A stretch of DNA of 64,000 nt from Tubiluchus corallicola (GCA_030141605.1 JAQGDQ010000110.1:248001-312000), one strand, 5' to 3'; shown: positions 27,850-63,971, numbered from the stretch's first letter. Translations and numbers: made by a program. Notes: a model not told the origin generated them from the sequence alone.

Positions 27850-30800
27850 ATGGAATTTGAAGATAGTGAAGAACATCTATGCTTTACGGTGTGTGGCATT
27901 CCAGCAAGTTACTATTGTAATTTAGAACTTGAGAACTACACCAAGAATTGGTTGCTCTCATTCGTAAGTCCAAGCACAGCTTCCACAAATTTCAGCTGGG
28001 ACAGAACTTGTGAAAAATTCTGTGATCTTGCGGTAAACTGTTCTGTGAGTCCCAAACACGAGGCCTTAGCTTTAATTGGCAAGCTAAAAAGTGAGTGTGC
28101 CTCTTTCTGTTTTGAGAGCCACAATTTTTGGTTTTCATTTGATGAAGTCAAAGGAAGGTTTCGCAGTCAGTCTTCACATCATGTTAAAATTAGTGAGATG
28201 GGTTTAGGAGTATTTGTGGATCATCATCATTTTAAAGAGCATTCAACACTCGCAGACAATAGTTGGGTGTCCATTATTTTTGAGCATAGTAATCAGACGG
28301 TAGTGTTCCGATCCACAATGGGACATTCTTGTTCTAAAATGGAGCTGGCATATCCATCCATGGATCGTACTGTCATTGTATATCAAAACACACTTGGCGG
28401 CAGAGTCAGTTTGTTCCTCTTATATCGTCTAGCACCGAAATTATGGTATAGAAACATGAACTGGTCACATTCCACTTGGAGCAGAACTCTGCACGTTAGT
28501 CCATTTTGCAGTGAAATCATTGGAAAATGTGCTGCTATCAGGCTTACATTTACCGATCATGGCAAAGTCAAAGCCATCCTATCGCGGCTGCAAGATTATC
28601 AGTTCCACATTTATTGGACAAATGTTACCATTTCCATGTCATCAAAAAGGTCTTCAAACGACTTTGACATTGATGCTTTGAGAACACTTGATGTGGATAG
28701 ATGTGTGGATAAACAACGAACACTGTATGCTATCGAGTGTTTGTTGTCTAGAGGATACAGAGTCTGGGATCAAGTTTCTGAAGAATTTGTATCCTTAGTA
28801 CAAGGTTTGTACAAATTCTTAAATTAAATTAGTTTCTTCCTAAATTGATATTAATTTGTGAAGCTCTGTATTATGTATAGGCATCAAAAGCATAAAGGTA
28901 CGACTCCGTGTGCACATAATGTGTGATGCGTGTACACAGTTTATATTTAAACACGTGGAAGTGTTTCCATGTGTACGTAATGTGAGATGCATATTCATTC
29001 GAATGTGATGTCTATCGTCTGAATACGCTTCACGTTTTACAGGTTAAAACTTATTTACTTCAATATCTGCAATTAACGTGGAGTGTTGCATTTCTGTTGT
29101 CAACCTCTAGTAATTTGTTTTTCTCCTTTTTTGCCTGGGGCTGATACGGCTGATATGATAAGTCTGTGTGGCTTGCCATTTGAATAGACAGGTCTGCTTC
29201 AGTGTTTCCTTCATTTTACCTTATCATTTGCCTTCTCCCTCCCTCCTTTTCTACTCCTTTGTCATTGCAGACAATTTACATCTTAATGGCTTTGCTGAAG
29301 CCTTGGAAAATGTCATCGTGAACTCAGTCGACGTGAGCCAGTTTAACAACATCAGAGAAGCGCTAAGTTCCGAAATTGAAAAACTTCGTGTAGCAGAACT
29401 AACTGAGGAGGAAATGCCCCAGAACTTTAGACTGGTATGTACTAAAACATAGACCATTCTATATAATGCTTAAGTCCATACTAAAATGGATTATAAATTT
29501 GACTAAGTTTTCGTCCTAATGTTTCTCATATTTTTCAGGTGGGCAAAATTTTGTTAACACCGAGCAGACTAATTTTCTTGACACCAGAAGCCATTCCCAG
29601 CAATCGCATACTCCGCACAAAAGGACATCGCTCGGAAAACTTTTTACGTGTTGCATTAAGAGACGAGGATGGCAATATCATTGCGTCTAGCCCTGCTAGT
29701 CGACACATTGTTAAAAGGATAAAACTGGTACTGGAAAAAGGTATTATGAGACCTCTTTCAAACGTGGAAGCTGTTCTGATATTCATTAGATTATCTTCCT
29801 GTTTGGTATGTTTACGATTATTCAGCTTCGGCGGAGGTCTATGCTCTTCTTAGAGCTTAGAGCTATTCTAATTTAAAAAGGCAGTAGACCTACTGGTGGG
29901 AGTATGGAGATTTCTCATTTATAAACATTTAATTTCTTAGTATTGTAAATGTTACAAATATTAAATACAGGTGTTAAAGTTGGAGAACTGCAGTACAAGT
30001 TTCTGGGTTGTTCGAACAGTCAGCTAAGGGCTCACTGTTGTTGGCTGTATGCGAGTGACGGGATACACACGGCAGATACAATTCGAAACAGTATGGGAGA
30101 TCTTTCAAATGAACGTTGTGTTGCTACATACATTTCACGACTTGGTAAGTTGTATATATGTGTTTGTCAGGACTTTGGCCTCGAAATTTTCGCATCGATG
30201 TCGAGCCAAAGCTGAAACTGAAGCCAAACATTTTGAATAAAGCAGAGTGAAGCCAGCTCAAGATGAATCAATTGGTGTTGTCGCATAAACTTCACAATTA
30301 AATGCATAAAACATGTTTGGAAATTGCTTTATTTTGGTTCAAACTTAGCAACACTGTTGTAGCAGTTTAATACAAAATTCAAGGACGAAAAGTTTGAATA
30401 GCTAATTAAGTGTACAAAGGCCACATTTAAAAAATATGTTTGTCTTATGTTGTACAACCAGTCATGAGAGGTTAAAGGTCAAGTAAAAGAAGCCAAAGAA
30501 CAACCACTTAATCTAAACACTTGAACACAAGAAAATTTTTATGCCAGTGTGTAGAGCATGGTTAGTAGTGCATAGATTTATCCTTGAGACAAAAAATACT
30601 AGTCATATGTGGATACAAGGCAAACTTGACCGTTGGTCATAGTGGTCATTATTCCACCTAAAACAGAGTTTTTGTGGGAAGTTGTTGTACTTACCTAACA
30701 CATGCTGAATTTGTACTTCATACCATAAATAACTTTAACCCTTTCACTACATTGTTGCTTTTTAACTGGGCAAAATTGATTTTTGCACATTTGACAATAA

Positions 30801-32573
30801 CTTCTTGTGGTGTGTTACTAAAACAAAATGTTGTAAATAAACAAATGTTGTTTGTTATTGCGTACTAATATTAAATATTAGTTGTATTTCTACACATGCA
30901 CACACGTGCGAGCACACATACTTGCACTCACACATATACATGCACACAATCATAAATGAGCATTTATATTTAGGAACCAGTTTTCACAAAAGACACAATG
31001 CTAATCCATAATATCCAATTATTTTATAAGAATGCAGAACAATCAGCTAAACATACGTTTCATCAATGAATGTACAAGTGATTTTGCGTGGAAACATACC
31101 ATACAGTACAGTATAGTGGAATGCTTCTGGTTTCAGATGTTGATTGACTGGTTAACGTTACTTGTTGCACAGTAGCCCTAATCCCACAGCTGTTAAATTT
31201 TCTATAATGTTTTTGCATGGCTATAGCAGTGAAATAAACAAACCTGGGTGACTGCGTTTAGTGCTGAGCTTGGGCGGCAGTCTACCACTTTCTGTCCTTT
31301 GCAAGAAAAACATTGGCGGCAAAAGCTTCTGTAGTGAAAGGGTTAAGACAAGATTCAATATAAGGGATTATGTTATAATTTGCTTCCTAATTATGATTTT
31401 ACTGGCAAGAGTGCATGTATAGAAACAGAGGAAGACTTCAGATTTTAAAAACTTTATAAAATCTTATTAGTGACAAACTCTATATAATTCAGGTCAATTG
31501 AAATTGAATACATTTAGTATACAAAAGCACGGCTATTATGTTTTAAGTTAACAGCAGACTTTATTATACATGTTTGTTAATATGGCCTAATGAGGTTATA
31601 GTTTTTGCGATACAAAGTGCATACATATATTTTATACTTTCTAATTTATATGAATCATATACATTTAAATAAATTAATGTTGCAATCCACTTAACATCGC
31701 TTATAATCGTAACACTTTTCATCAGTTTCGTATTATGAAGAAAAAAGAGAAAAATTGATTATCAACGTCATTACTTTCATGCATGTTTCAAGCAGAATCT
31801 TCGAAAGGTACAAGACTTTCTGACCTTCTCTCACCTTCATAGCATGCTAGTTTAATCCCTGCATCATGGAAAACGGGAATATGAGCATTGGTCCATGTTT
31901 GAGAAATGGCCAAAATTTGATAGACTGTTTAATTCTCATTGTCAAGGCTGTAATATTGAAGCATTGGCATCGAAGGATTGAAGAAAATGAATTGCTTCTC
32001 TGAGTTGTTTTTAGTTCTTCTATGAGTGTACGCTGGGTGCTTAACAGTAAGACAGAACAAAGTAAACAAATATCCAAAAGACTTGTGTCACTGGCAATAG
32101 TCACGTGTTGCAGATGTCATAGCATGTCAATACTGTTCTGACTTTGCTATACCGATATCGGCTAGAGTTTGGCCCAGTCAGCTTCAAACGATTTAGCAAC
32201 TTTTCATTTTCATCATTGTTTCACCGGGGTTGCACTTTTGCAACTGCGTCTAATATTCTTTGAGCTTGCAGAGAACAGAACAACAAGTTTATACAGAAAG
32301 AAGTAACAGTCTTGAATCCAAGACCCACGGCCTTGGTATGGATGCTGCCCCTTAAAAACCTCTTAAGGCCACAAAGCTATTTTTATAGCTGCGTAGTTTT
32401 ATAAAATTGATAATTCTTTATGCGAAATCGAAGGCAAGTTCACTTGAAAATGATAAAATGATGTGTTGCATGTTTTGAAATAAAAGTTCGTTCTTTGTAA
32501 GGCCAGGCCAATAAGTACTTTGGTTTTGATATCTGCATGAAAAATAGTATTATGTTTTTATTGAACTGAGAAC

Positions 32574-32614
<41 letters not shown>

Positions 32615-35600
32615 TCTTTTTCCTTTCATTTGTTTTTTTAAATATAAAATATAAAAAACATAGTTTACAAATTACAAAAGCTAAGACATCTAAAATAGCA
32701 ATAAACACATACAAGCACTAACTGACTATTGGTGAATGCAATGTGCATGTTGGCGTTAATGCAAAATGTTAGTCGTAGATTGCGCTGTGAAGTTGACTCA
32801 TTGTTTTGTAAATATTTGTTTACATGTTTGTTTAGAAAAGATAGGTTATCTTAGCATACAGTTGTTTATTTTTGTGGGCGAATAATATATCTTAAAAATG
32901 GAGCAGTCGTGTGCTTTTATATATAATGTGCCCATACTTGCTGTGTAGGTCAAGCTTTCTCTACCACTATGGATGCTGTTGACCTTGGCTTAGAGGGCAT
33001 TAAGAAGGAAACAATACCAGACGTTGTACGTGGTGTTTACTGCTTTACCGATGGGATTGGCAAGATCTCGAAGCCACTTGCAGATAAGGTATGATCACAA
33101 GAGTGATTCTGCAAGATGGATCTTATGGGTTGTTCTTTGCGACTATACTGCTAGAAGAAGAGCTAACATTCCTCCAGTATCGCTTTTAGAATCATAGAAC
33201 CATGCAAGTCTTTGCCAGCCCTTCATTATTAAAAGGAACGATCATCATAGGGACATGCTATAAATTAGGCCTACTAAATAAGTAAAAAAGTCAATTTCAC
33301 ATTTACAAAATTTTCAAAAATGCATTAGAGTTTCTCTAACTTAAGGTTGTGAGTATTCAGGCCTATCTATGGGTAATGCAGGGTAAAACTAGTGTCACTA
33401 ATAGATCTATCCTTTCTTTTACAGGTGGCAACAAGCTTACCCACGCTTACTTACACGCCATCAGCATTTCAGATTAGATATGGTGGAGCTAAAGGCGTGC
33501 TAACTGTAGATTTAAGTTTAGGTAAGTTTTTTTATCTTCGTCAGCACTTTTTATCATTTATAGGTTATTGCCATTGCTAAACAGACTGTTGTGCAATGAC
33601 AGGCATTCTAAATCCACAAGTGTTTAATTTTTCACAAACATCATAAGGAAAAATGCTTAGACATGACCAAAATATTCACAAAAGTCTAGTAATTTTTTCT
33701 GTAAGACTTGACTACGGTTTCGGAAACGTCAAGTTATGATTTTCAAAACTATCATAAAATAGCCACATTGGCCAAGTATCCTGTTCAAAACATGAAGCTG
33801 TATTGTTTGTCATTGTTGCATCCAGTGCAATCGTGTGGTCATTTGGTACATTGTTTCTTCAAGGTACAGACCACTAATCAGTTTCCATTTATTTCAATGA
33901 GTATAATGTCAAAGATTTCCTTCAGTTACGGTTGCAAGTTGTTTCCTGCAGTTAAGAGTTTTTTGGATATTGTAAAAAGCATCTGCCATTGGTCTTATGA
34001 TTCTATGACTTTGCTTTTATAATTTACTTAAGATCAGTTCCGTTTGATAAGCTGCATTTGCTATGATTTAAACTTTATATGTAAACAGTGTTATATACAG
34101 CGTGTTGACATTTTTTCTCTGGTGATCTAGTTGAGTTTCGTCAGCCTGATTTCATAAATTTTAATTGCTTTCTTGCTTTTTGTTTTTTTTTTCTTTTACA
34201 TTTATTAAACATGAGTATTTTTTGGAGTTTTCAATTCTAATTGATTGCTATCTTGTTTCAGGGGACAAGGAAGTAATCCAGGTACGTCCAAGTATGGAAA
34301 AATTCCATTCACCATATCAGAAACTAGAAATATGTGTTGTTGCTCGACCAGGTCAGTATCCAGTTATTTTTAATATTCCTTTAGTCACTCAAAATTTCAT
34401 TATTTTTTTATATATTTTATATTCTTTATTGCTAAAATGTATTTGTACAAAATCAGTTTTCAGCTGCATTGAAAAACAGATTTAGTGCCAGGCAGTTTTT
34501 ATTTAAGTTAAATGCGCCCATTGTAATTTGTTATTTCAAAATGATTTGAGGTCTAGACCAGGACTCTTAATTCTGTTACATTTAACTCTGCTGTGTTACA
34601 TTCTGACATAGTAGTCTGAAGAGACATGCTTAGTTACCCAGTTTAGCATACTTAATGCCATGTCTGTTCAGACTTTTATAAACAAAACTGCAGGCCGAGT
34701 GACTTCTATTTTATGTTGCTTTGATTGATTTGATGTGGCACGTTGCTTATGCTGTTCTGCCAATCTCAGCTGAAGTTTGTTGATAATTTTTTGCACAACT
34801 CAACAGGAATAAATTTCCGACTCATTTTTATTTTTATAAAGATAGCTGATAAAAGTTTGATATTTGTGAAAAAATTGATTTGCAGAGCAGTTAAAAGCAC
34901 TTCCTTCCAGCATCGAAGCGAACTAGATGAGTCTGAATTACAGTCTGATATGCAATTACGTAACCCTGGATTTCTAACAACATTTAATTTAATTAGCGTT
35001 TATAGCACCACCAACAATCTTCTGCATGGCTTAATACAATACAATCTTATTATATTGCAGCTCCTCTTTATCTCAATAGGCAAGTAATCACTTTGATGTC
35101 GGGCCTTGGCATTCCCGATGAAGTCTTTGTAGATCTTCAGGACAAAATGTTACGTCATCTGTCTAAGATGCTCATTTTCGATTCGGAAGCAGTTCACGGC
35201 TTGGCAGAGGTGAGCAGAGTTTCTTTATACATGTAAAAGTGAAATCTTTTATAATATAATGTTTTGCTTATTCGTTACTTATTGCTACACAAACAACTGC
35301 TTGTGTCACGGTGAACATTGACGTGGATGGAAAATATGATTCGATCCCAGTACTCGGTAAAATCGCAGTTGTTTTTCGAATATCATTAAATTTTGTTTGT
35401 TATCGGAATATTTTAGCTAATTAATTACATAATTTTACCTATTGTACTAATGTTATAAACTTTTAATGTGGCTGTATGTAGTGCGGAACAAAATATTATA
35501 TCTTGAACTAGGATAATTAACTGATCAGTAATCTCATATTTACCTCCAAACAATCATTTATCACTCACCTGTGCTCAATTTAATGGCCTAGATATGAAAA

Positions 35601-38600
35601 ATAAGAGACTGGAAAAGCAGTGACTGTTAATTTGGAAGTTCTTTGTGATGTAGAGCCTATTGAATTTGTGCTAATGTCGTATGATCAACTGGGGTCTGGT
35701 CATGATTAGTTACAGTTCTGCTAGTATTAAAGGAAGACAGGATGATTTTTGATATACTACCTCATTTTCAAGTACTGTAAAAACTATACGTTTTAATATC
35801 AATAATACTGTAAAAGCATTTCTGATAAAATTTAGCTTCTGATGACATCACAAGCTAACATAATTTTCAACAACAGAAACATCCAACTAGCGTGTTTGCG
35901 AAAGCAAAAATTGAAGTACTGTACTACTGTAAGAGATTTAGTGTGTTGTAATAAAACTCAGCATGTTTTTAAATGAAAATTCAAATTTTAAATTACCACT
36001 TGCTTACGCATTACACTTGTGCAATGCATTCCAAAATGCAACTACTAGTGCCCATCTAACTAGCGAATGGCGAAATGCATGTAGCAGAGAAAAACTAGTG
36101 GTGCAAATGAGAAATTGAGTTTGCCTGGTAATAATTCTTTCATGTAAGTCATTTTTAAAAAAATAGTATGTTTCCTTTCAATATTTTAAAGAATAGGTTG
36201 TTTTAACCTATATTTTAACATTGGGTCCAGTTTTTTCTGATTTTGCTTTAAGCTGATTTAAAACTACTGTATGCTCAGTGTTAGTATGTTGTGCATATTT
36301 TCGAAGTACGTATAAGTAAAATTTAGTATTTGAAATGATAAATATTAATGTTGTGTGCATACGTTTTTATCTATGGTGTTATCACGAAGTTCATGGGTTA
36401 ATGACTGTAGTTATATTCTGCAGACTGCTCACATTAATGTTATTATTGTTAAGCATATTGCATAATATAAAATCAAAAAGATATGTTTGGCAGATGGGCG
36501 GTATGTGCTCAGCCTGCAATTATACTTACAGGCGCATTTAGGTTTCAAAACGAAGACATTAACTAAACATGGATTTCCGATTGTGACTGAGCCGTTTTTG
36601 CGCTCTGTTTTGTTGATAGTCTTCAAACAACGATTGCGAGATCTCACGTTGAGATCACGCATAGAGTTACCGCACAGTGATGGACGAATGATGATGGGCA
36701 CTGTAGACGAGTATGGTGTACTTGAGGAAGATGAAGTTTTCGTGCAGTATTCTAAGGAAGTCACTTCACCCAAAGACGAGCTGGTAGGTCTTTGAGACAC
36801 ACTTTTAGTTCTTCTTTTAGAAAAAAATCTAATAAATAAATGGGGTAAAGTGAGTCGTGCTGGTTCTGTTTTTTAGAAAAACTTCAAATAAAAAATGAGG
36901 TGAACCGTAAAATGTTTTATCTGTGTTTGCTTTAATGCATTGTAATAATTATGTATTTGGTAATTTTACGTCAAATCGTCACCAATAAGCAGAGCACTGG
37001 ATAGTTATTATTTGGCAAAAGAATTTCGAAAAAAATTTGCTTGTTGCTGTTTTTGTATGGAAATCTTCTGCAGTAGGAAGCTACATAAGCACATTGTTTC
37101 TGTGCTGCAAAATTACTCATTGTCAGTCATTCATACTAGAATGTCATTGCCACAAAACAATCATAGTTAGCAATGTTATTTCTGTAAGCTGTCTCGTTGG
37201 TAACTTTCAAAAATTTCTAGAATTTTTATCATTTCAATCTTGTCTGCATAGATATATATTATCAAATGCCAAACACATTATAGTACCCATTTTACATTGT
37301 TGTAAGTCCAGATTCTTTCTGTACTGATTTATGACCGAATCCTATTTGCCGTTAACTGTCTTATGTATCTGTTTGACTCCAAAAGGACTGAAGTCATGCA
37401 TATCTTTGCATTTCAGCTGTAGGGCCCAATGCCCAGTGGCAGCTCGTAGCTGAAATTGCTGGGAGTGCTGTTTCAGAAAATTTTTAGCCATTGTTTTAAT
37501 TCTACGTAGAACAAAACAAACATATATAATTTTATGTTGTAATTTTAAACAAATAAACATACGCAAAAATTTATACGTAAACTTGATAAAATCGTAAAAA
37601 AAGATATTGTTTGCTTACGAATAGCCTAAATTGTTGCAGTTCAAGAATATGCTGGTACACCACTTTTAAGCCCATGACAACAGACAACACACACTGCGTG
37701 AGTGACAGTACTCTTTCTACCTCAAGTGCAGCCTCTTATCTCAGACATGTGCACATGGCCTCATGCGCACAACAGTCAAACACCATGTTGCTTGAGCAGT
37801 GACCGCACTGTGCTGGGCTGTGAAACAAACAGTACTACTCTCACGTGCACTTGGCCATACAAGTATAAAGAAAGAACTAAAGAAAAACTTATAATATTGA
37901 ATATTATCGATAATATTGAGTGAAAACAGGAGTGCTGCAGTTCCACGGTACTTGTACACAAGCCCCCACTGCTAGACAAGTCTGGTTCAGACATTTCTGC
38001 CTTGATTCTGAACTAGCTTTGCCAACATCAGTATAATTTCAAAAGTTAATGCCTTTTTCAAGATTCGAACCAGACAGCACAGTTTTTGTGTACAATTTAA
38101 CCTTCAAAGTTGCTTCTGAGGCATTTCATAAACTTTCTAGCAATACAGTTTGTGTGATTAGACAGCAATGTGAACGTTTTGTGCCTTTTTCTAATCTCCT
38201 TAACTTCTGCTGATTATTTGCTAGATTGTGCTCACTGGAGATGTTCTTGTTACGAAGAACCCTTGTTTTCATCCAGGAGATATTAGGATTTACAAAGCTG
38301 TTGATGTACCAGAACTCAGTCATTTATCTGACTGCATTGTCTTTTCTAGCAAAGGTTCTATAATTCATATCTCAATAATTTACTCCGTTACTGACAAATG
38401 GTTTTAAATTAAAAGTATATTTTCTGCGGATTAGTTTTGCATCTGCAACTATACGTATTTGCAATAAATTTCAGTATTCATTAATAATTTATTCTTATTT
38501 TTAGTACAGCTATATAGATCGGTTATCATTGTTATCAAACTACATCAGTTAGTACGGCATGTTATGTACATTAATCCTGCAAGATGATAGAACAAAAACA

Positions 38601-41600
38601 AACCTATAACAGGTTTTCACGAGCATTATAAGCCTTTTATTAAAGACTAACAACTTACCGACAGTTAATGTTAAACGAAAGAACTGTAGTGTACATTGTG
38701 TTTTAGCTGCTAATACTTTTAATTCATACTAATAATAATTGCTCACCTTATTCAACTTGCTGGTAAGCAGAGCAGTACTAAGAACTGTAGTGTATAATAT
38801 GTTTTAGCTCCTAATACTTTTAATTCATGCTAATAATGATTTCTTACCTTATTCAACTTGCTGCTAAGCAGAGTAGTACTAAGAACTGTAGTAGTACTAA
38901 GTTGTTCATACCTTGGTGTAGCATGTAACTATGCACTTCTGTTTATACAGGACATCGGCCCGCTCCAAATATGATATCTGGTTCGGATTTGGACGGAGAT
39001 ATGTACTTTGTCACCTGGAACAAAAAGCTGTTGCCACCTCTCTGCAACCAGGAACCAATGCCATTTCCAAAAGCTGAGAAAAAGTACCTAGATCATGAGC
39101 TGTGCACATCAGATATGATCGATTTCATTGTAGATTACATACTCAATGATCAATTAGGTATGATTGCTAATGCTCATCTTGTGCATGCTGACATGCAGAA
39201 ATACACTATATTTAGTGAACCCTGCTTGGAACTTGCAGAACTGCATTCCTATGCTGTGGATTTTCCAAAAACCGGAAGCTGCCCACCAATGCAGCCGTAT
39301 CTTACCGTCAGACAGTTTCCAAACTTCATGAAGAAGTGGGATAAGCCAAGATACACATCAAAAAAGATCATTGGTAAGTGATGCCTTGTTTTTTTTATTA
39401 GAAACTTTTATCATGGTTAGTTTTATCATGTACTGCCACACATTGCATTTTTGTTGAAACTTGCCAAATGCTAGACTAGTTGCTTTAGTAGTGCACTAAG
39501 CTGAACTGTTTGCAAGTTTACTAGTTTAAGGCAGTAATATTGACTAAACTTCTTTAACTTCACCTGTTTGAAAGAGATTTCATACTTGTCTATTCTTTGC
39601 ATTAAGTTTTAAATGGAGGCTCTTCCTGACATGCTTTACAGCACTAAAAGATGCACATGTATTTTCAGTTTTTTATATAGCTTTGTATAATAAATTTGTC
39701 ATTTTGTTAAAAATGTACTATCATGAGCCGCAGAACTAAAGTTTTTTGTCGCTAACAGCATTACAACCATAAGTGATGTCACTACATGCATACACTGTCG
39801 TGTAGTACTTGCATATGTAATACAACTGTTGTTATTAGTCCATTAATATTTTTAGGAAAACTCTTTGTTACGTGTGAGATGCTTTCCAAGCAACAACTCT
39901 CGTTAAGTGATCAGTTGATGTCTTCAACTGATGTAAAACCGGATCCTCGCTTTTTGATCTCTGGCTTCGAGAGTCACCTCCTCGCTGCACAAGTCGCGTA
40001 CGGCTTGTATTGCAATAAAGTCAACACCGTCATGAAAACTTATGGGATCAGTCATGAAGTCGAGCTGGCGTCTGGCTTTGTAATGAGAGTTGGCAATCAT
40101 CGAGGCATACTTACCAAAGAAACTGGTGACGTGAGAGAACTGTTGAAGGCCAAAATGAACATGATTCGACAGCAGTTTAAGTGTACGCTTTTTGTTAAAT
40201 TCGGAGAAGAAGAAAAAGTGATGGAAAACCCTCCAAAAGAGCTGCTGCAGCTCGTTTCTGCATTTTATTATGTAGCGTATTCTTCACATTCTTCCGAAGT
40301 TTCTCGGTGCTTAAGTTTTCCCTGGATATTTCACAGTTTGCTGGCTGTCATCAACAGGATCAATACCAACTGTGACTTAAGCTTCAACATTCCAGCAAAT
40401 ACTTTGGGACCTCTCTACATATCAAAAAGCATTGAACAATACGTAGAAATTGAATCCGAGCAATACAAAGCAATAGATGTAGCTGTGGGGCGCATTCAGT
40501 CCATGATCAGTGGTGCTTTGAATGTTTCCGTTGTCAGAACTAACCTCACAGAATTGGGATTACATCTAAGTAATCATGTGGACTTAGCTGTGAACACTGC
40601 AGCTGTGGGAAATTATGCTAGTGTGATTACTACGTCATTGCCTAGTTGTCTGCATGTTAGCAAGCAAACAGATGATGTTGTTGTATTGACAGATGCATCA
40701 TTTGAGATTGTGCTTCATAAAGCGGACAGTGAAGTACATGAAAGAACTATTGGTTTGTCAAATGTACTTTCCAACTCACCGTCTTTCCGTAAGTTACTTA
40801 TTGTTCTAGTCAATTGGGCTTCCTCAGTGTCCTTGATTGGATATACAAGACATGACACAATAAGTCCTTTGTGTTTTGCGAACATTTTAAGCAATTATTT
40901 ATTTCAACTGCATGATGCTGATATACAGAACAATCTAGGCATGCATTTTTTGAGTTTGTTGCATTATATAAGCAGTGGACGAGTCATCACTGACCACCAG
41001 GAGGTATTTAACACAATGCCCGAGCCGTTCTGTGATAAGATGACAAAATTCGGTTTGCACGCCTATCATAAAGTTTGCCAGATGCTAAGTGTTTTAGCAT
41101 TATTCGATGACAAGGTAAACTGCGATAGCAATAGAACTAATAATATGCTTGTTGAAAAACTGTCCACTGAAGCATTTAGTTCAATAGTTTATGCTGAGGA
41201 ATATCACTCAAGACGCATGTCTGACAAAACTGGTGCTATTGTAACTATCAAACAGACGGTAATTGGTAACAGCAATGCTTTAGTGCTAGAAGCTTGGGGT
41301 TCAAACAGTGCATTGTGGAACGTGACACAGGAAATCTTAAAGCTGGAACGAAACCGCTTTGTGTCGGTAACCCATCATAGAAAGCGAACATTGGTCCACG
41401 GATCACATGTGTTAATGTTGGAGAAATCTGCGGAGGAGGCGCAGGTGGTATTTGAACCATACCTGGGAGAGACGAATGATAACCATAAAAACCGCAGTTG
41501 TGTCATACCGAAACTTCTGCAGTTGACAGACAATGGAATTGAGTTTGAACATTTCAAGCAAAGTGTGTATCAGCAACGTCAGCTGTTGTTAGACAAATAT

Positions 41601-42443
41601 GATGATAGGTACCATGGGCAGTTGAGGATCATTTCTCGCTTTGGTCGAGTGTACCTCATGCACACACCAGATTCAGAAATGTCCGTTCGTCAGCTACTGG
41701 AGTGCACTAATGGCCAACTGAACATATTTCACAAACCATTTGATATTAGACATTCGTTTATTCCACAAGACTCGCGAAATGTCGAAGAAGTAAAAGGTTT
41801 CTTAAGAAACTCCAACTTTGAAGAAACTGACAAGACAAAAAAATTCCAAGCACAATTACTTGGAGCAAACAGAGTATCAACTACACTTGTTTTAGATGAG
41901 AATTTTAACTATATAGAATGTCGCTTGTCGGATTACAAGTGGATGGTCGCAGACTTGGTCAGTGTGAATGGATTGCTGGATGCTCGAATACAAGTCCAGT
42001 CTCGTCGTTGCATTACAGGAAGTGATATCGACAACTACGAGGGGATGAAGGACTTAGCAAATCCTGAAATGCCTGTAATTGTGCCAGATGCCAATATCAC
42101 TTTTGGAGACGCTCCTGGAATTCGAGTTTGTAATGCATTTTGGGATGTTTGTGAATTTGTGCGTTATAAAGAGGTAAGCCGGTATACATATTTAATTCCA
42201 ACTCTGGTACGTGACTCTAGAATTCCAGGAGTTAGTTTTCTCCAACGTCTGTGGATTGACGTGAATTACGTGTGTCAGTACTCACGACCACACCGTGGAC
42301 AATTTCGAGATGTAGTTCCACGTCAGGAGGTAACTTTGCAGGCCTCTTTGCCTAGCCTTCGAGAAACGGCACAGCTAAACAGCTTCTTGCTAGATTTTTG
42401 GGAGTTTACGATTCGTCTTCGAAATATCATATCCAACGGTTGA
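27850..42443 (+). CDS. Cellular RNA-dependent RNA polymerase (RNA-silencing type, DLDGD/RDR-alpha-like) with long C-terminal extension; 12 coding exons, ~1787 aa
   Basis: Exons 27850-28804, 29271-29434, 29539-29740, 29971-30144, 32949-33088, 33425-33521, 34262-34351, 35061-35209, 36532-36783, 38225-38354, 38951-39373, 39856-42443. GT-AG, phases consistent, 5364 nt. Motifs: SNRILR..FLRV, YKFLGCSNSQLR, RLGQAFS, YCFTDGIGKIS, PSAFQIRYGGAKGVL, RPSMEKF, YLNRQVI, GTVDEYGVLEEDEVFVQ, VTKNPCFHPGDIR, SGSDLDGDMYFVTW, LGMIANAH..AD, LHSYAVDFPKTG, SAFYYVAY..SFPW. An additional upstream exon is possible (acceptor TTATAG ends at 27847). Confidence 0.95.
30739..31342. mobile_element. piggyBac-type MITE (604 bp) in RdRP intron 4
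   Basis: TTAA|CCCTTTCACTACA ... TGTAGTGAAAGGG|TTAA: perfect 13-bp terminal inverted repeats starting CCC, flanked by TTAA on both sides; no transposase ORF. Confidence 0.85.
32577..32611. repeat. (TA)n microsatellite
   Basis: Uninterrupted TA run. Other simple repeats: TA-rich ~1065-1105, CA-rich ~8960-9000, AAT ~55951-56010. Confidence 0.9.
38679..38893. repeat. ~101-bp tandem duplication (2 copies plus the start of a third) in the intron before the DLDGD exon
   Basis: AAGAACTGTAGT..TTTTAGCT.CTAATACTTTTAATTCAT.CTAATAAT..CCTTATTCAACTTGCTG.TAAGCAGAG.AGTACT starts at 38679 and 38780; the head recurs at 38881. Confidence 0.9.
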
Positions 42444-45143
42444 AGAACACCTAGTTGTCTGTTTAGAAATCATTTACAGTAAGGAACGTTATAATGCTAA
42501 GACATTTTTGTTTACAAAACAGTATAATGTCTTAGAATATGTTTTATATTAACTTTTGTGTATGCAGCTAATGTGGAATAATTTATATTGCTAATTTAAT
42601 TTGTGATATTTATTTGTGATTTTTTTCCACTTCCACGCAAAATTGTTCAAATAGCTTCTTCAGGTTTGTGAGTTTATAAAGTGCTGTTACAAGTGTTCGT
42701 CTTTCTTTATTGCCGTACATGATAATTTTTGGTGTAACACACTTCCTCATGTGTACATAAACGTTTTAACTACTGTTTAAAATGTTGTTGTACTAGTCTA
42801 TATCTATATAGTTTACTAAATGCCAGTAAACTATCTGGCAGAAATAGTCAAACCAAAATTTTACATGTGCATTCAGTTGTTGCTGTTTTGTATAGTGTGA
42901 CATACATGTATACATAAACTTATATTTGTACATCTTGTTTTTTTACATTTTTATCTTTACATTTTTATACTTTATTTTTATTCTTTATATTTGTACTTTT
43001 GTTCATGCACAGTACATTACCTGAACAGCTGTTTTATAGTTTATTGTTTGCACATTATGTTTCACTCTGTTGCTAATAGTCGCTGTTGCTGCTGCTGCTA
43101 TTGCTACTGTTTGTTACCAATGTTAATGCTAGTGCAGCTAACAAAGTAGCTAACACATGTGTAGCAAAAAAATATTAACAATTTGCTTACAGTGTGAAAG
43201 TAGTTATTTAAACTTTTTAGTTTTGCACTTCACTTGTTTTTAGAACTGTGTGTGTATTTTTTAAGCTATAAGCCTTGCATGTTATCAAATCAAGATTGAA
43301 AAGAGGGACTCACTGCTTGCCACAGAACTTGCATGTATTCCAGTATTGTAAAATTACTAAATTTGTGTGCTGTACACTAACAAAACAGTGTATTCTTACC
43401 ATTGTATACACAGTTTGAAGCTCATTGCATAACATTAAATTATAGTAACATGACAGATTTAAAATGTCTCTGCTTTTATGTAATGAATCAGAAGTGCATT
43501 AAGTATCCCATGTATAGTCCTCTAGCTAAAGGTTACAAACTGTATCATTTACGTTATTGTACCATGTACGTTGCTATTGTCTTAATTTTATTTTTAATAA
43601 ATAAAGTACTGATACATCTGTTAGCTATGGGCTTGACTGTTTGATGCACTTTAAATAAACTATGGTTTTTCCTAAGATGTTTGTGCTTTGTGACATTCAC
43701 GAACTCTGAGAAACTTCATTTTCATGGACATTGTTAACAGTTCACTGAACTCTGAAAAAAAACTGATATGTATTTAAGAGCATTGTGAAATCTTTCTTGA
43801 GCTTTGGGAAACTGTTCATGAATTGTATTCATACTTCTTGGCCACTTTATAGGGTTCACGTGCATATATGTATAGCATAAAAGATCAGGCAGTGGTCCCA
43901 ATGAACCTACCAGTTATGCACCCGAGTCAGTGTAATTAAATGCCATGCTTGGTCGATTTCAGTAGCGCCCCCATAAGGAATGTAATTTCAATGTCCATCA
44001 TGGAAGCATTACCATGGAAATTTATGTCAGTAAGCAACTTAAGTATTTAACTCAAGAACATTTTGAAACTTCTTCAAGATATTTCACCTGGACTCGTGCT
44101 TGCTAATGTGATCAAGCAAAAAAGTCAAGCAGCTCATGCTAAGAATATGACATTTAGCTTTTTATCAAAGAATATAAAATTTGCTGTTAAATTTAAAACG
44201 TATTATGTTGTGCCGTTTTAAAATAATATGTTACATGTGAGATGTATGTTATTTTATGTCTACACTTCTTTTTAATCACACTGCACTTTACTTACTTTTT
44301 TATTTGTGACTGCTCTCCTTTTTCAAATGTGATTTTTTTTGCTTGTGCTAATATAAAAACCACAAAAAATTAGTCATTAATTTTATGTGATTTTTACTAT
44401 TTTTTAATTTTTCATCTAATGATAAACCACAGTGTCGGTTTGTATTCGCTTAATTGTTGGATTCTTCATTAATTGCTGGTGCTTATCTTTGTAGGTAAGT
44501 ACATACCATAATCACCCACCTATTCTCTCCTAGTAAAACTATACTTATAGCTAAACATATTAATAAAATACTACATTAGTAGTTAATTAATAAGTGCTTA
44601 GCTCAGACCTATCAAAATATTTAGTTGAATAAAAATGCGCAAGAAACATGAAAGACATGAAAGCTGAAGTCATTCCATTACAAAGCTATTAAAGCAGATT
44701 TAATGAAGATCAAAGAAGTTAATGAGCAATTGCCATAGATTGCTTATTAAATATCTTGATTTTGTAAAATACAGAACAATCGATCAGTTGTGTATTAAAA
44801 TGTGAATTAAATATTGTTATGTACAATATCCAAATTGCTTCATATAAACAAACAGCTCAAGAATAGAATTTCATAAAAAGCTCAACCAATCTGGCTGCCT
44901 TAAATGTTCATGTATGTTTTGTGTTCGTACTACATTACGAATTTAAGAGTTCTGACAAACTACTTGTACTAATAATGCACTCGAGATTCACTTGATCACA
45001 TTCAGTGAAAAATGCTAATACAAAAATTTTTCCACACTGTAAAATGTTGAGCTGCTGGTACAAAAAACTATAAAATGTTTTATGTAGGTGAAAGATTACA
45101 AAAAGTATTCTACTATTAACTGTTATCTATAAAAAACAAACTA

Positions 45144-45538: not shown

Positions 45539-48106
45539 TTATACAAAATAAGCAGCCAATTGTGCCATTTTGTCTTTTGGCTTGCCGCGTCTGCGTCCTC
45601 TGCCCCGTCCTCTTCCACGTGTAACTGTTGATGCAGCTGGTCGACGCTGTATTTTCGTGCGAGCATGATGCAGTTCAGTCAGTGGTGCAAGAATTGCATC
45701 ACAGTAAACACATCCTGTATGTTCTGTCATCCCTATTTCTAGAGGAGACTTTGCTTTGTTGAAGTTCACTGTGACTAAGGCAGAGTTGCACTTTTCGCAG
45801 TCGTCTTCTGTGACACTAACCCTGTGTGCATCTTCAAAGCAGCCCATAACCACACTGCATTTGTTACAAGCTAGCTTCCATTTAGGAGCAGAAGTTGGAT
45901 CTAGAACAAGCACGCCATTTTCACATTCTACACAAGATGAGACGCCATTGGCACTCACGCTGTGTACACAGCTCGGATGCGTGCACTCGTTGCATCCCAT
46001 TCCCTTGCGCATGTCCCTAAATGGAGGATAGTTAAAACAATATGGACAAACAGAATAACATTTACCTTTTGTTCCAGTTGTCCATAAGACCAGTTCAAAA
46101 TCATCCAAAGGGCACCTGAGTTCTTTGTAGAGCTTGATGCTTCCATTCTGCGGTAACTTGTAAGTCTCATCGCAATGTGTGCAATGCAGTCTGCATGGCT
46201 TCGCTTGCACAAACTTCATGAAGCGGCGACATTTTCCGCATCTTGACAAAGGCTTCCCACTATCTGCCAATGTTGAGAATGTCACCTCAAACAACTCATC
46301 CATTCCAGTAATCTGTGTGACGAAATACTGAAACTTCAGCTTGAATATTTCCAAGGCATGCTGAAGAACAGAGTGAAAGCTAACTTTACCTTGAGCAATC
46401 AAGTTTAGTTGCTCCTCTACAGCAGACCTCATATGAGGCTGGACAAGCTCTGGGTCAATCTTTTGATAGCCGTGAACCAGAACAATGCCTAGTGGTGTTG
46501 GTATTAATCTACGGCCAGTACCAACAGTGACATAGTTTCTTACACCAATATTGTTGATGTGAACTGGAATGCTAGCATCCGTACCGATGCCATGCTTTTC
46601 CATTAATGTTATAACCTCACTTTCAGTTAAATAATCAGGAGGATTGGTAGTGCGTTCTATCAGTTTCACATCTGTCAAAGGGCATGAATTTTCAGTATTA
46701 AACTGGGGAAGATTCTCTTCTGCAGGAATAGCCTGCCAGGTCATCAATGCTGTATACCCAGGATCAATCACCTCCTTACCAACCAACGTAAACTTTTCTG
46801 TTCCAATAGAAAATGTAACGGTTGTTTGCAGGAATCGACAGTCCAGAGATAAAGTAGCAATGAAATGCTGTGTGATGTATTCATATAATTTCCATGCTTC
46901 TGTGCCGACTTCAGCTTCACTAGAAGGTTTTAGTGGAGTAATGGGCGGATGGTCACCTGCATCGTGGCCTTTCCGAGGCTTTTGAATTCCAGATTCTAAA
47001 AGAGCACAAACAAACTGTCCCCAATCCCTGGAAACCCTCTGTTGCCGAAGTGTCCCAAGAAGGTCAAAATTCGCTGGATAGCATGTTGTCTCTGTTCGTG
47101 GATAACTAATGTATCCTTGTGTGTACAGCTTCTCAGCAATTGTCATAGCATGATGTGGTGCCATCCCTAGTGCAGAACTGGCAACTCTCATCAACTCTAC
47201 AGTATTTAAAGCAAGAAGGCGCTGCTTTACCTTTTCCTTTTTACTAACACTTGTTACTGTAGCAGTGCTGTGGGCTCTCACCATATTAAGAAACATTTGA
47301 GCCACCTCTTTGTCAAAAATCCGTATACGCTCCCAGTCAATGTTAATTATGTTACCATTTGGTCCTTCAATCTGTGGCTGAAGAACCCAATATGGTTCTG
47401 GTTTAAATGACTGAATTTGATCATGCCTGTTTACACAAAACCCGAGTGTGGGCGTCTGACAGGGGCCATATGAGATTACTGTACTATCCAAGTTTCCATA
47501 TTTGCCTTGAAAAAATTTTGTTTGAAATCGCGTAAACGCACAACCAATTCTTAAATCTAATTCCTGCCGTGCATCTACTGACATGGCTTCATTTTTATTA
47601 GGAGAACCCAGATTCGCCATAGCATTCTTGATATCTTGGTCTGTAATTGCACTAAAGTGAGCTCGAAATATTGTTTGTTCATCATTTCCCGAAGAATTCA
47701 TAACACCTCGTACTGCATCAATCACTTCAAAACAAATATTCTCACCTTCTTTGTCACAGTCTAACCAAAGTACCAAATAATTAGCTCCCCTTGCTTCTTG
47801 AGCTAAGAAATAGGGCATTCTTAACTTTGGTGTGGCTTCTTTCTTTTCAATTTGAGCCCAAAACAAATCAGCGGGATCTACACGATCCCAGTTGTTAAAT
47901 TTTGCCTGGAAATCGACACCCATAACATGTCCACATACAGAGGTCATTTTAAATTGTACATTTTGACCCCTGAATCTTCCAGTGTATTCATGAATAGAAC
48001 ATGCGCCATTTGAACCTCTCCGCGTATTAGCGCTGCCATTAGATAAAATTTTTGCTAGTGATAGCGCCAGTGACGGTTTTTCTGCAACCATAAAAACAGT
48101 CTTCAT
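45539..48106 (-). CDS. TOP3B: DNA topoisomerase III beta (type IA DNA/RNA topoisomerase), 855 aa, intronless CDS
   Basis: MKTVFMVAEKPS TOPRIM start, WLDCDKEGENIC, catalytic GYISYPRTET, HGIGTDAS, multiple CxxC zinc ribbons, RG-rich tail and the terminal PKDKMAQLAAYFV typical of the beta paralog. ATG at 48106 preferred over the TTG at 48130. Confidence 0.97.
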   Translation of the reverse strand: MKTVFMVAEKPSLALSLAKILSNGSANTRRGSNGACSIHEYTGRFRGQNVQFKMTSVCGHVMGVDFQAKFNNWDRVDPADLFWAQIEKKEATPKLRMPYFLAQEARGANYLVLWLDCDKEGENICFEVIDAVRGVMNSSGNDEQTIFRAHFSAITDQDIKNAMANLGSPNKNEAMSVDARQELDLRIGCAFTRFQTKFFQGKYGNLDSTVISYGPCQTPTLGFCVNRHDQIQSFKPEPYWVLQPQIEGPNGNIINIDWERIRIFDKEVAQMFLNMVRAHSTATVTSVSKKEKVKQRLLALNTVELMRVASSALGMAPHHAMTIAEKLYTQGYISYPRTETTCYPANFDLLGTLRQQRVSRDWGQFVCALLESGIQKPRKGHDAGDHPPITPLKPSSEAEVGTEAWKLYEYITQHFIATLSLDCRFLQTTVTFSIGTEKFTLVGKEVIDPGYTALMTWQAIPAEENLPQFNTENSCPLTDVKLIERTTNPPDYLTESEVITLMEKHGIGTDASIPVHINNIGVRNYVTVGTGRRLIPTPLGIVLVHGYQKIDPELVQPHMRSAVEEQLNLIAQGKVSFHSVLQHALEIFKLKFQYFVTQITGMDELFEVTFSTLADSGKPLSRCGKCRRFMKFVQAKPCRLHCTHCDETYKLPQNGSIKLYKELRCPLDDFELVLWTTGTKGKCYSVCPYCFNYPPFRDMRKGMGCNECTHPSCVHSVSANGVSSCVECENGVLVLDPTSAPKWKLACNKCSVVMGCFEDAHRVSVTEDDCEKCNSALVTVNFNKAKSPLEIGMTEHTGCVYCDAILAPLTELHHARTKIQRRPAASTVTRGRGRGRGRRRGKPKDKMAQLAAYFV

Positions 48107-48899
48107 AGCGGTACAACTAACTGGCTTCAAACGAAACAGGAATAGTGAGAAACATCCGCAAATTTATTGCCTCATTCATACAATCACTGTCTTGCTAGTT
48201 ACTGCAGATTCAGAATTTACACAAATAACTGCATGGCAAAGAAACTTCAATAGGAGAACGCTTCTCACGGGCATCGACGTTCAGTCATTGACGATTTACC
48301 GTAATTCACTCGTCACGCCTTCAGTTGACCAACTAATTAAAAATATCTGTAAATCTTTTGTAAAAATTCCTATTTGATTTCTATTAGTATAGAAACGACA
48401 CAATAAAAATGGTAGCATTTACGTTGCACAGAATATACTACTTAGCTCCTTGGACCATTTGCAGCACCTGTCTACAGTCTAGGCTGCTACTTTATGTAAG
48501 CTGCACTCAGGACAGGATTCAGAGTAAAGATATAAAATGTTTGTGTGCATGCTATGCATACGACCTGCCTGTCATTTAATTTGAATAAATTTGTTAAATC
48601 AACCTGTTCAAGTTTAGATAAAGTTGGCCCACCAAGAAGCTGAAAATGGGTTAGTCCAAAATTTATTGGATATAATATAAGTTTATAATTTAGTATAGAT
48701 TATCTTGTTTGTTTTTGCATTAGTTTGCTTTCCACAATGTTGATTTTGTACTTTTTATACTCTATATTTTTATTAAGTGGATTGTTGAGTGACCATGACG
48801 ACGTTATGGGCGAAACATTGCAGCAGAGCAGCTGTTTGTGTTTGAATGAAAGCCATGTTTTTCCTTAAGTAGGTGGAGGCTATTATTTTCATTAAAGCA

Positions 48900-52600: not shown

Positions 52601-53083
52601 TTTAAACATATTCCTAAGTTTGTTTAAACATGTTATATACATTGTACTCTAAGAATTTAAGTACTTGTTTAAGAATTCATGCAAACTGTTTGACAGAAAT
52701 TGTACCTTACTGCCATAGGTCCACAATAAATGTTCATCTGCTGTGCTTTAGTTAAGAGTTTGTGTTAAAGTCTTTTTTGGTTTTTTTCAGTGCCATAAAT
52801 TCTGAAATAGTGTGTGTTTTGTTTTAAACTATTAGAACGAAATAAATTGGTATTTGGTGTTTTCATATTTTCTTTGTTTTTACTTAAATGTAGTTCACAG
52901 CAGTGCACTGAAGCTTCTTCTTTTTTCGTTTTTTGTTGTGGAATTTTTGATTAATTGTTCTTTGACATTAGAATTTCCACATCAGCATTTTCTCTGAAAG
53001 AAAATGACACTGATGGCGGTGCTTCTAATTGCTTCTTTGTTAATTTCAACAGGTGGAAATCCTGTTAGACTTTACAAGCTGCA

Positions 53084-53662
53084 ATGTCGAATTCCTTTGA
53101 TGAACATGATGCACATGAGGATGATCTCAGTTTGGGAGCTAGAAGTCGGAGACCTTGTCGGGCTTGTACCGATTTTCGCACCTGGGCAAAATTGAAAAGT
53201 CTAAACAAAAAAATTGAGGGCCAATCGGCTGCTACTAGCAGAATGGATGATAATGATAAAAGTAAAGAATTTGATACAGGAACAAAGAATATGGAAGTGA
53301 GTGAAAAACATGTTGCTGGGCAAGACTGCCCTTTGGACATTGAAGAACTTGGGAACAATACGTGGTCTTTTCTTCACACAATGGCTGCATACTTTCCAGA
53401 CCAACCTACACAAACTCAGCAAAATGAGATGAAGCAATTTATTGCGACTTTTTCAAAGTTTTATCCGTGCGATCACTGTGCAAGTGATTTTCGCGAACGA
53501 TTGCGAATTCATCCACCAGAGGTTGCCACTAGGAGCCTTTTATCACAATGGCTATGCGAGGAACATAATGTAGTTAATCGAAAATTGAATAAAAAGGAAT
53601 TTAATTGTAAACTCGTTGATGAACGCTGGAGAGACGGGTGGTCTGATGGTTCGTGTGACTGA
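53084..53662 (+). CDS. GFER: FAD-linked sulfhydryl oxidase ALR/Erv1, 192 aa, intronless CDS
   Basis: RPCRACTDF shuttle motif, DCPLDIEELGNNTWSFLHTMAAY, YPCDHCA redox CxxC, WLCEEHNVVNRKLNK, C-terminal VDERWRDGWSDGSCD. Confidence 0.96.
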   Translation: MSNSFDEHDAHEDDLSLGARSRRPCRACTDFRTWAKLKSLNKKIEGQSAATSRMDDNDKSKEFDTGTKNMEVSEKHVAGQDCPLDIEELGNNTWSFLHTMAAYFPDQPTQTQQNEMKQFIATFSKFYPCDHCASDFRERLRIHPPEVATRSLLSQWLCEEHNVVNRKLNKKEFNCKLVDERWRDGWSDGSCD

Positions 53663-62300: not shown

Positions 62301-63971
62301 AGTTTTGTTTTGCTTTAAAAATCAGTTCTGTTATTGTGATGATGACGGGTTTTAATGATGTGTTTGCTTTTACAATAGTCCCAGGGATCATAGGCAGTTT
62401 TCAAGCTCTGGAAGCTCTTAAAATAGCTAGTAAAATGCCAGGTAACTAAACAGTTTTTCTTCTAATATACGTGATAAGAAAAGCAGAGAGAGGCAGTAAA
62501 AAACAAAGTTTCTAGCTAAGAGTTGAAGGCACTGCTTTCTTTTAATTGTCCCAGAGAAATCCAGCTTAGACTGTGATGCATCTCAATTGTGTGATTTCAA
62601 AAACCGACTGAAAATTTTCATACACTGGCAAAGTACCATGCATCAAAATTCTTAACTTTTTTGCATACTGCCTGTCTAAGCAAATTTAGTTATCTATATT
62701 TAGTTAACTATGTAATTAGTGTTGAAAGTAACAACACTATTAAGATTCCTAGGATGTTTCAAGTGACTTATCGATTTTTGTGAACTTATTGATTTTTCTT
62801 TATACTTGAGTTGACAAGATGACAAGATGATGTTAAGTTGTAAAGATGATGTTTCCTAACTTTTGCTTACTAAACGGTAACAATTGTGTTTAAATTCATT
62901 TGGGAAAGTACAGAAAATAGACACTGGAATGACTCGTACCTAGACTTTTGCTCTCTTTTAAGCAAATGTTGTTGTTGTTTGACTTGTTTTTCTATTTGCT
63001 ACTTCCTTTGTTCACACAAGGAAATTCGTTTTTTCACATTTAGGTGATTTCAGTGGATGTTTCTTGTTAGTTTCACTTCTAAAACCTTAATCTGCATTAG
63101 AATTTAGTACTTAAATGTATTTCTAATGAGATGGTGAGCTACGCTATTAACCACCTATTAACTGTTATCTTGACCGTGTTATTGAAATCGAGCAGTCTAA
63201 CAAAATTTTTGATAAACTCAGTATTTTTGTGCTTGTAGTGAGTTTTTCTGAGAAACTGCTGCTATTCGATGCACTGGACGGTTCTATGAGGACCATAAAA
63301 TTAAGACCAAAGCAGCAAAACTGTGCAGTTTGTGGCATGGAGCCATCCATAACAAAGCTAATAGACTATGTGCAGTTCTGTGGAGCTGGTGCGACAGACA
63401 AATCACAGGATAAACATCTGTTGTCTGAATGTGACAGGATCTCTGCTCAGGTATTTCTGACTTGTTTATGTTTTTGTTTACCGACATTCTTCCATACTAA
63501 CAAAAAACTCTAGCTATTTCTGTTGAAATCACTTAAGTCTTTCCTTGTATTACGAAAGATATTTTCCCTAAAGAGAAACAATAAATTTTTAATGTCAGGT
63601 GACAGCTACAACTGCCTTTTAATGAAAATTTTTGAATTAGCACAGACTGATTTCTTAAATAAAACAGGAGTTACTACTTCGTGGTGCTGCATGTTTTGTC
63701 TTTCGCTGTCGTGAATTCATTGATCCAGTAAAACTGCCATAGCTAGTATACAGAGCATTCAGTCATGTTATCTAGCACTTTTACTTACTGCATTCATGTT
63801 GGTGTGTGTAACGAGTATCTTGTTTTGCTACTGAATATTCATGAAATAAAATCACTACAGCTTCATCATTTCAGGATTACAAGGATGTAGTTGACAAGGG
63901 TGTTAAGCACCTGCTGATCGATGTCAGACCATCAGTTGAGTTGGATATTTGCAGGCTTCCCAACTGCTACA
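56328..63971 (+). CDS. MOCS3: Adenylyltransferase and sulfurtransferase MOCS3/Uba4; partial, 3' end beyond the window
   Basis: Exons 56328-56421, 56949-57162, 57644-57836, 58676-58784, 62379-62441, 63239-63450, 63875-63971; phases consistent. Motifs [79 protein letters not shown], and rhodanese start [16 protein letters not shown]. Confidence 0.96.
60340..60990 (+). pseudogene. Decayed class A (rhodopsin-like) GPCR fragment, TM3-TM7, inside MOCS3 intron 4
   Basis: TM3-like [20 protein letters not shown] (DRY-like), TM6 [12 protein letters not shown] (CWxP), TM7/helix 8-like [23 protein letters not shown]. Interrupted by stops and frameshifts; no TM1-2 seen. Confidence 0.75.
61410..61825 (-). 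mobile_element. GC-rich retroelement-like body abutting the 3' end of the 5S copy and ending in a (TA)n tail
   Basis: Abrupt GC-rich block in an AT-rich intron; begins immediately after the 5S terminal GCTT and ends ...GGATGCCAATCAATATATATATATAT. From memory it resembles non-autonomous Ingi/Vingi-type elements (unverified). Confidence 0.55.
61826..61945 (-). rRNA. Full-length 5S rRNA-like copy (probably a pseudogene or SINE3 head)
   Basis: Minus strand AACTACAGCCAAATCATGTTGAAAACACCGGTTCTCGTTTGATCACCGAAGTTAAACAACATAGAGCCTGGTTAGTACTTGGATGGGTGACCGCCTAGGAATACCAGGTGCTGTAAGCTT, 120 nt, with box A/IE/box C present. Solitary, and no oligo-T terminator follows. Confidence 0.88.

Follow-up and report, generated by a model that had tools for sequence, protein, structure and literature searches.

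A Tubiluchus corallicola gene for an RNA-dependent RNA polymerase with a fused, predicted inactive nucleotidyltransferase, a putative KH-like domain and a candidate 5'-triphosphate-binding barrel

The 64,000-nucleotide stretch of the Tubiluchus corallicola genome analyzed here (GCA_030141605.1 JAQGDQ010000110.1:248001-312000; hereafter the window) encodes an RdRP (RNA-dependent RNA polymerase) that continues for 695 codons past its head domain into a Cid1/GLD-2/TUT-type nucleotidyltransferase (NTase) module, predicted to be inactive, then a putative KH-like domain and a predicted triphosphate-tunnel barrel. The fusion of RdRP and NTase in one chain is confirmed: the head (SAFYYVAY..SFPW) and the entire extension lie within a single last exon, exon 12, and the fusion therefore requires no splicing assumption except the use of this exon. 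The extension is stop-free, the other five frames hold 24–60 stops, and the chance of such a run is ~1e-20 at the local base make-up. An initial annotation of this DNA had described a reading frame running about 700 aa past the head, covalently joined to a probably dead Cid1/TUTase-type module acting as a built-in reader of RNA 3' ends. Its length estimate, the peptides it quoted (found at their places in frame 39777-42443), the fusion, the fold and the probable catalytic loss all stood; the 3'-end role was not supported, and the KH-like domain and the barrel, which resembles RESC2, had been missed. Conservation suggests that the barrel, not the NTase, is the part constrained at the residue level, which is new here, as are, judging from sequence comparison, an animal-type version lacking a helicase, the probably dead NTase and the KH-like spacer.

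The RdRP gene lies in a region with many introns and 34% GC (Table 1). Twelve exons with AG/GT ends (27850-42443) give a stop-free protein of 1787 aa, predicted from DNA, and an AG directly 5' of the ATG of the model makes further 5' exons possible. Family PF05183 matches exon 9 (E 1e-14) and exon 11 (E 6e-45), the RdRP domain with its DxDGD motif is present, and identity to bivalve and other full-length RdRPs is 37–40% over ~950–1000 aa. Core, head and DxDGD are shared with the eukaryotic RdRPs Arabidopsis and maize RDR2, Neurospora QDE-1 and Caenorhabditis elegans RRF-1, EGO-1 and RRF-3, all members of PF05183. Unlike RDR2, for which the accessible text of PMC13650160 describes a solved structure that stops at the head, the window protein carries ~695 extra aa in three added modules. 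Contigs of run X1 (genomic DNA, with gaps over exon 12) were identical to the window at 39729-40267, 41101-41650 and 41918-42128, and a fourth match to exon 12 had one base changed; the matches of run X2 to the window were repeats only. Several high-copy repeats lie inside the RdRP introns.

Table 1 Features of the window, with positions counted from its first nucleotide.
Feature	Position	Strand	Basis or remark
TRAPPC8 exons	about 1-24000	-	
RdRP gene, predicted exons 1-11, aa 1-925	27850..39373	+	AG/GT ends, one stop-free frame
Predicted RdRP exons 1-4	27850-28804, 29271-29434, 29539-29740, 29971-30144	+	
Predicted RdRP exons 5-8	32949-33088, 33425-33521, 34262-34351, 35061-35209	+	
Predicted RdRP exons 9-11	36532-36783, 38225-38354, 38951-39373	+	
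RdRP catalytic motif DLDGD, intact	38986..39000	+	Sequence
RdRP last exon (exon 12), 861 codons + stop	39856..42443	+	Neck/head, pseudo-NTase, KH-like domain and barrel of triphosphate-tunnel type
RdRP neck/head domain, aa 951-1098	39930..40373	+	Maize RDR2 Z 13.6, rmsd 2.2 A over 135
Cid1/GLD-2/TUT-type NTase fold, aa 1106-1346, predicted inactive	40395..41117	+	Structure match, family profile
Degenerate GS..DxD motif	40536..40583	+	R1153/T1154/N1155 at GS, H1166 for Asp1, D1168 kept
V1211 at third catalytic Asp position	40710..40712	+	Profile mapping
KH-like domain, aa 1354-1426, without GxxG loop (VYAEE)	41139..41357	+	Profile matches, model topology
Triphosphate-tunnel (TTM/Cet1-type) barrel, RESC2-like, aa 1437-1787	41388..42440	+	Structure matches, conservation
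Two AATAAA hexamers 3' of RdRP stop, candidate poly(A) signals	43596..43659	+	Sequence scan
TOP3B, intronless amid intron-rich region, tail to tail with RdRP gene	45539-48163	-	
Erv1/Alr gene	53069-53662	+	
ThiF-family exons	57576-63513	+	
7tm_1 receptor fragment, between ThiF-family exons	60537-60890	+	

The initial annotation had proposed looking for the same fusion in other RdRPs, and a family was found. Searched with phmmer against 1.84 billion representatives, the extension had 48 matches at E<=0.001, or 47 after P0048, a repeat-rich surface protein, was dropped as a relative; three word-index homologue searches found no relatives. PF05183 is present on 16/48 matches, and the MTPAP-like palm PF22600 follows directly after the head in 8/48 (4 above the curated cut-off). 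DxDGD and the tunnel signature occur on one chain in 11 of the 47, the remainder being mostly fragments. Scallops, oysters, an ark clam and one amphioxus fragment are among the 29 matches for which taxa were looked up; the last (P0006) is a 403-aa barrel-bearing fragment, which may or may not belong to an RdRP. By these sequence criteria the fusion recurs as a family, bivalves included, and some members appear catalytically intact. P0028 (in a cluster with Magallana gigas) and P0030 (Saccostrea) are RdRP paralogues without DxDGD in which the NTase is strongly decayed. A separate scallop locus (P0007, Mizuhopecten), on a scaffold as long as the one carrying the P0008/P0053 model, is annotated as the extension alone, without an RdRP core, and split or stand-alone copies of the extension are possible.

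Evidence for the NTase fold came from an AlphaFold2 model based on a 50-row alignment, with a mean pLDDT of 84.8 and values of 65–94 per ten residues across the NTase; the alignment contains intact NTases, so the model leans on it, and a pTM of 0.60 leaves domain packing uncertain. A single-sequence fold model of the extension was unusable (pLDDT 30.7). In the AlphaFold2 model, aa 1106-1346 match GLD-2 with Z 19.2 (rmsd 2.9 A over 233), TUT7 with 19.1, CutA with 18.9 and Cid1 with 18.2, and TUT4 lies within ~1 unit of GLD-2, which answers the structure and profile check proposed with the initial annotation (40416..41105, or aa 1113-1342). A profile built from the window sequence together with 21 relatives also matches GLD-2 (E 1.2e-10), TUT4, CutA and Cid1, and a 10-row family profile matches GLD-2 at E 2.5e-13. 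On a relatives-only profile the NTase region of the window scored 26.9 bits, chiefly from the helical lobe, against 4.4 for the best of 500 shuffles and -1.2 for the reversed sequence; the palm alone scored 7.1 bits, below its best shuffle (10.0). A Pfam search of exon 12 and its parts gave no family at E<=10, and the NTase stretch, searched by itself against PDB sequences, had a single, irrelevant match (E 0.14). Hence, the NTase call was confirmed via relatives and structure. For the oyster relative P0004, the Atlas score for a TENT-type NTase was 0.94, and its helical lobe and KH region gave only leads of <=0.85. No internal repeat was found between the NTase and the C-terminal part of the extension. 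The model predicts for aa 1106-1346 a Cid1/GLD-2/TUT-type fold with a Pol-beta palm and a helical central/PAP-associated lobe.

This palm and helical fold is shared with Cid1, GLD-2, TUT4-7 and CutA (Z 17–19 over ~230 residues), but here it is fused to an RdRP, its C-terminal lobe is shortened, and GS, Asp1, Asp3, the triphosphate lysines and the SY pair are replaced. The GS position reads R1153-T1154-N1155 in all registers tried. In the model the degenerate DxD motif forms a strand-helix-strand at aa 1151-1171, and its strand reads H1166-V-D1168, with Asp1 lost and D1168 as Asp2, as the initial annotation had it. Taking G1145 for the motif Gly would give another register, which was ruled out, as the model and two alignments set D1168 on the conserved Asp column. 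The third acidic residue had been assigned to E1209 (in ASFEIVL); this was also ruled out, as the catalytic column falls on V1211. One of three catalytic aspartates is therefore kept (H1166, D1168, V1211). V1244 and S1248 take the place of the lysines around W1246, and P1263-L1264 that of the SY pair; in Cid1 these positions serve to bind the triphosphate. The PAP-associated-lobe stretch is shortened to 37 aa (26–55 in 19 relatives) and the family profile lacks 12 GLD-2 residues there, presumably the nucleotide-recognition loop, in a place where local alignment is uncertain. The aspartate triad is essential in the terminal nucleotidyltransferase family, according to the accessible text of PMC7988573. 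From its sequence, the NTase module is a probable pseudo-enzyme that has lost catalysis. In one of the X1 contigs (depth 2, 151 bases), 15 bases are missing in frame at 40586-40600, just past D1168 and between two 7-base direct repeats, which may be either a pseudo-NTase allele with a shorter loop or an error.

Downstream of the NTase, aa 1354-1426 are likely to form a KH-like domain or spacer: they have the beta-alpha-alpha-beta-beta-alpha order of a KH domain in the model and weak profile matches (E 0.0016–0.09) to IGF2BP2 (E 0.0016), IGF2BP1, KSRP, hnRNP K and Nova. GxxG, the RNA-binding loop of type I KH domains, is absent; the window has VYAEE, and each loop position holds Gly in 0–5 of 32 relatives. 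Pfam DUF7636 matches the KH-like part of P0005, P0010, P0012, P0013, P0015 and P0043, and in P0045 the NTase helical lobe matches DUF7752, with no match reaching the cut-off. Both DUFs are known from nematode RdRPs and would accordingly be vestiges of this tail.

The best Foldseek matches of the barrel were RESC1-RESC2 (E 8e-11), then Pct1/Cet1. The model aligned with 8cdp_B, taken as RESC2 because of its residue range and of how chain 8fn6_2 is labeled, at Z 23.4 (rmsd 3.0 over 273), with RESC1 at Z 21.4 and with Cet1 at Z 16.9 (rmsd 3.6 over 223). Conserved residues are K1620, D1634, R1636, R1695, K1697, R1748 and E1750. Among those of the 47 matches that cover each site, R1636 is kept in 42/42, R1695 in 40/42, K1697 in 39/42, K1620 in 39/43 and E1750 in 39/39; all five are present in the window protein, and the four basic ones sit on barrel strands in the model. 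These tunnel residues were assigned via strand pattern and alignment, without residue-level superposition on RESC2. Mapped by strand order, with a placement of the Cet1 motifs on the barrel strands that is our assumption, the metal-glutamate sites here are R1516 and I1518 on the first strand and T1752/Q1754 on the last, and acids occupy these four sites in 4/42, 0/42, 0/38 and 2/38 relatives. The accessible text of PMC10201420 gives the Cet1 metal glutamates as E305, E307 and E496, any single loss of which inactivates the enzyme. By the same source, RESC2 lacks two of the three and is inactive, binds 5'-ppp RNA through tunnel Lys/Arg, contacts the gamma-phosphate with four of them (K311/R359/R402/R424), and holds the guide-RNA 5'-triphosphate and protects guide RNA ends; RESC1 shares both the fold and the basic residues, yet does not bind triphosphate. 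The window barrel thus resembles Trypanosoma RESC2/RESC1 and yeast Cet1 in its tunnel and basic lining, and RESC2 in its loss of metal glutamates. It differs from RESC2/RESC1 in sequence (11% identity), in belonging to an RdRP chain rather than a mitochondrial heterodimer, and in that binding is here predicted. From the model, the barrel is likely to bind 5'-triphosphate RNA ends.

We tentatively favor a reading that we place a little short of an even balance, in which the barrel grips uncapped RNA by its 5'-triphosphate and so selects it for copying. The RNA gripped could be viral RNA, Pol III transcripts or earlier RdRP products, which the RdRP would then copy into double-stranded RNA. The barrel would leave the triphosphate unhydrolyzed, because the metal glutamates are absent. 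Against this reading, the RESC1-type non-binder scores nearly as high as RESC2. Alternatively, the barrel might hold the 5'-ppp of the RdRP's own unprimed product for protection, length measurement or hand-over to Dicer or Argonaute. The intact DLDGD motif, the protection of guide RNA ends by RESC2 (accessible text of PMC10201420) and the 5'-ppp borne by direct RdRP products (accessible text of PMC6396948) agree with this, but we regard it as unlikely, since P0028 and P0030 keep the tunnel Lys/Arg without DxDGD, which fits a ligand from outside the chain. Small-RNA data also point to an outside ligand rather than the own product: the accessible text of PMC6396948 reports no 5'-ppp secondary siRNAs in amphioxus, and that of PMC10062562 describes RdRP1-dependent small RNAs of ticks as 5'-monophosphorylated and mainly from Pol III genes and repeats, although tick RdRP1 may or may not have such a barrel and there were no chelicerates among the named matches.

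The role as an RNA 3'-end reader proposed for the NTase is not supported. Here the dead module would hold the 3' end of the template, such as a U or UG tail, and feed it to the polymerase, and the fold and the position beside the head are as such a reader would need. Residue conservation was counted over 19 non-redundant matches covering the palm, with the near-copies P0049 and P0052 removed: G[ST] is kept in 11/19, Asp1 in 4/19, Asp2 in 14/19 and Asp3 in 2/19, and the complete motif set in two (P0040 and P0045). D1168 (14/19) and R1222 (R/K in 16/19) indicate that selection still acts on some of the NTase cleft, and R1222-T1223 and W1246 are conserved among relatives. Separate NTases, Cid12 and Rdn1/2, are known partners of RdRPs. 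Worm RdRPs cooperate with the tailing enzymes RDE-3/MUT-2, as stated in the accessible text of PMC7988573. Set against this, the palm is the least conserved module, with a mean identity between window and relatives of 14%, a figure that alignment error may depress, compared with 18% for the helical lobe, 28% for the head, 29% for the KH region and 25% for the barrel. It is also net acidic (6 K/R, 12 D/E), the basic residue at Trp+2, kept in 15/19 relatives, is Ser in the window, and a 12-residue stretch that GLD-2 has at its nucleotide-recognition loop seems to be missing. Most of the palm is absent from the Mizuhopecten model P0008/P0053, where a gene-model error is possible. We consider 3'-end reading improbable.

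Under the favored reading, the dead NTase and the KH-like domain would form a rigid arm or a protein-docking surface, for which the inactive first NTase lobe of TUT4/7 is a parallel. The module resembles other inactive NTase folds, the Lin28-interacting module of TUT4 (6iw6, Z 17.4) and NF90/NF45 (Z 16.7), and differs from them in being joined to a polymerase. Extended to all three added modules, which would then be pseudo-domains serving as a protein scaffold or dimer surface without RNA-end binding, this idea can draw on the NF90-NF45 match, the KH domain without GxxG and the failure of RESC1 to bind triphosphate (accessible text of PMC10201420). It too seems improbable, and near-invariant, inward-patterned Lys/Arg at 25–27% identity would be hard to explain without an anionic ligand. 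Residual catalysis with non-standard residues, as tailing by the NTase or PIR-1-like triphosphate removal by the barrel, is very improbable: D1168 and E1209 lie near the NTase site, E1750 is invariant and position 1733 is an acid in 35/39 relatives, but Q1733 occupies it in the window, the equivalents of Cet1 E305/E307/E496 are lost, and so are GS and two of the three aspartates called essential in the accessible text of PMC7988573.

Under the preferred reading, a 5'-triphosphate clamp that selects RNA, the NTase would be left over from an ancestral chain whose tunnel barrel sat at the RNA 5' end and whose NTase, intact in P0040 and P0045, tailed the 3' end. Decay in the family is graded, from a full triad through GS with one Asp and one Asp only to an absent palm. 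P0040 is a helicase-RdRP with Helicase_C, RdRP, an intact NTase and part of the same tail, which makes it likely, by sequence, that the window gene descends by decay from an active four-module ancestor. In an unrooted tree of the RdRP C-half and head (18 rows), the window and 15 relatives stand apart from P0040, a long branch, and P0045 (95/96); a quick tree of KH and barrel (41 rows) left the placement of the window unresolved. A tblastn search with the N-terminal 330 aa of P0040 gave no match in the window, where the 5' end of the gene model comes from DNA alone, and no helicase was found in full-length bivalve RdRP models. Helicase-RdRPs exist in Dictyostelium, oomycetes, Hydra and Nematostella (accessible text of PMC4791657); unlike that clade (RrpA-C, oomycete RDR), the window gene has a dead NTase and no DExH helicase was found in it. 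For mites and ticks, the accessible text of PMC7659050 describes the RdRP domain alone. A full-text literature search, with subscription papers mostly out of reach and supplements excluded, returned no account of an RdRP whose C-terminal part includes an NTase, KH or tunnel domain, and the term 'nucleotidyl' is absent from the accessible text of PMC6396948, PMC4791657 and PMC13650160.

More broadly, these genes may represent a widespread, undescribed class of cellular RdRP with its own 5'-triphosphate sensor, whose ancestor read both RNA ends and in which the NTase died in many animals and the barrel stayed, a proposal that we find possible but on balance doubtful. If true, it would provide RIG-I-independent selection of viral or Pol III RNA for copying, and it would account for the lack of 22G-type RNAs from RdRPs outside nematodes. 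The function of RdRPs in non-nematode animals is open: amphioxus keeps RdRPs without detectable secondary siRNAs (accessible text of PMC6396948), and a tick RdRP copies Pol III transcripts by a selection rule that the accessible text of PMC10062562 leaves open, for which a 5'-ppp clamp would be a concrete candidate. The rule could be tested by four point substitutions, farmed bivalves included. It would also place the RESC-type tunnel, so far from trypanosome mitochondria, in animal RNA silencing, and the graded decay of a fused tailing enzyme offers an example of how pseudo-enzymes evolve.

A local RNAi gene cluster was ruled out, the neighbors of the RdRP gene being housekeeping genes, among them the MOCS3-like ThiF-family gene. 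Elsewhere in the window, a short tandem repeat array at 11515-12050 lies in an intron-like region and is open in several frames.
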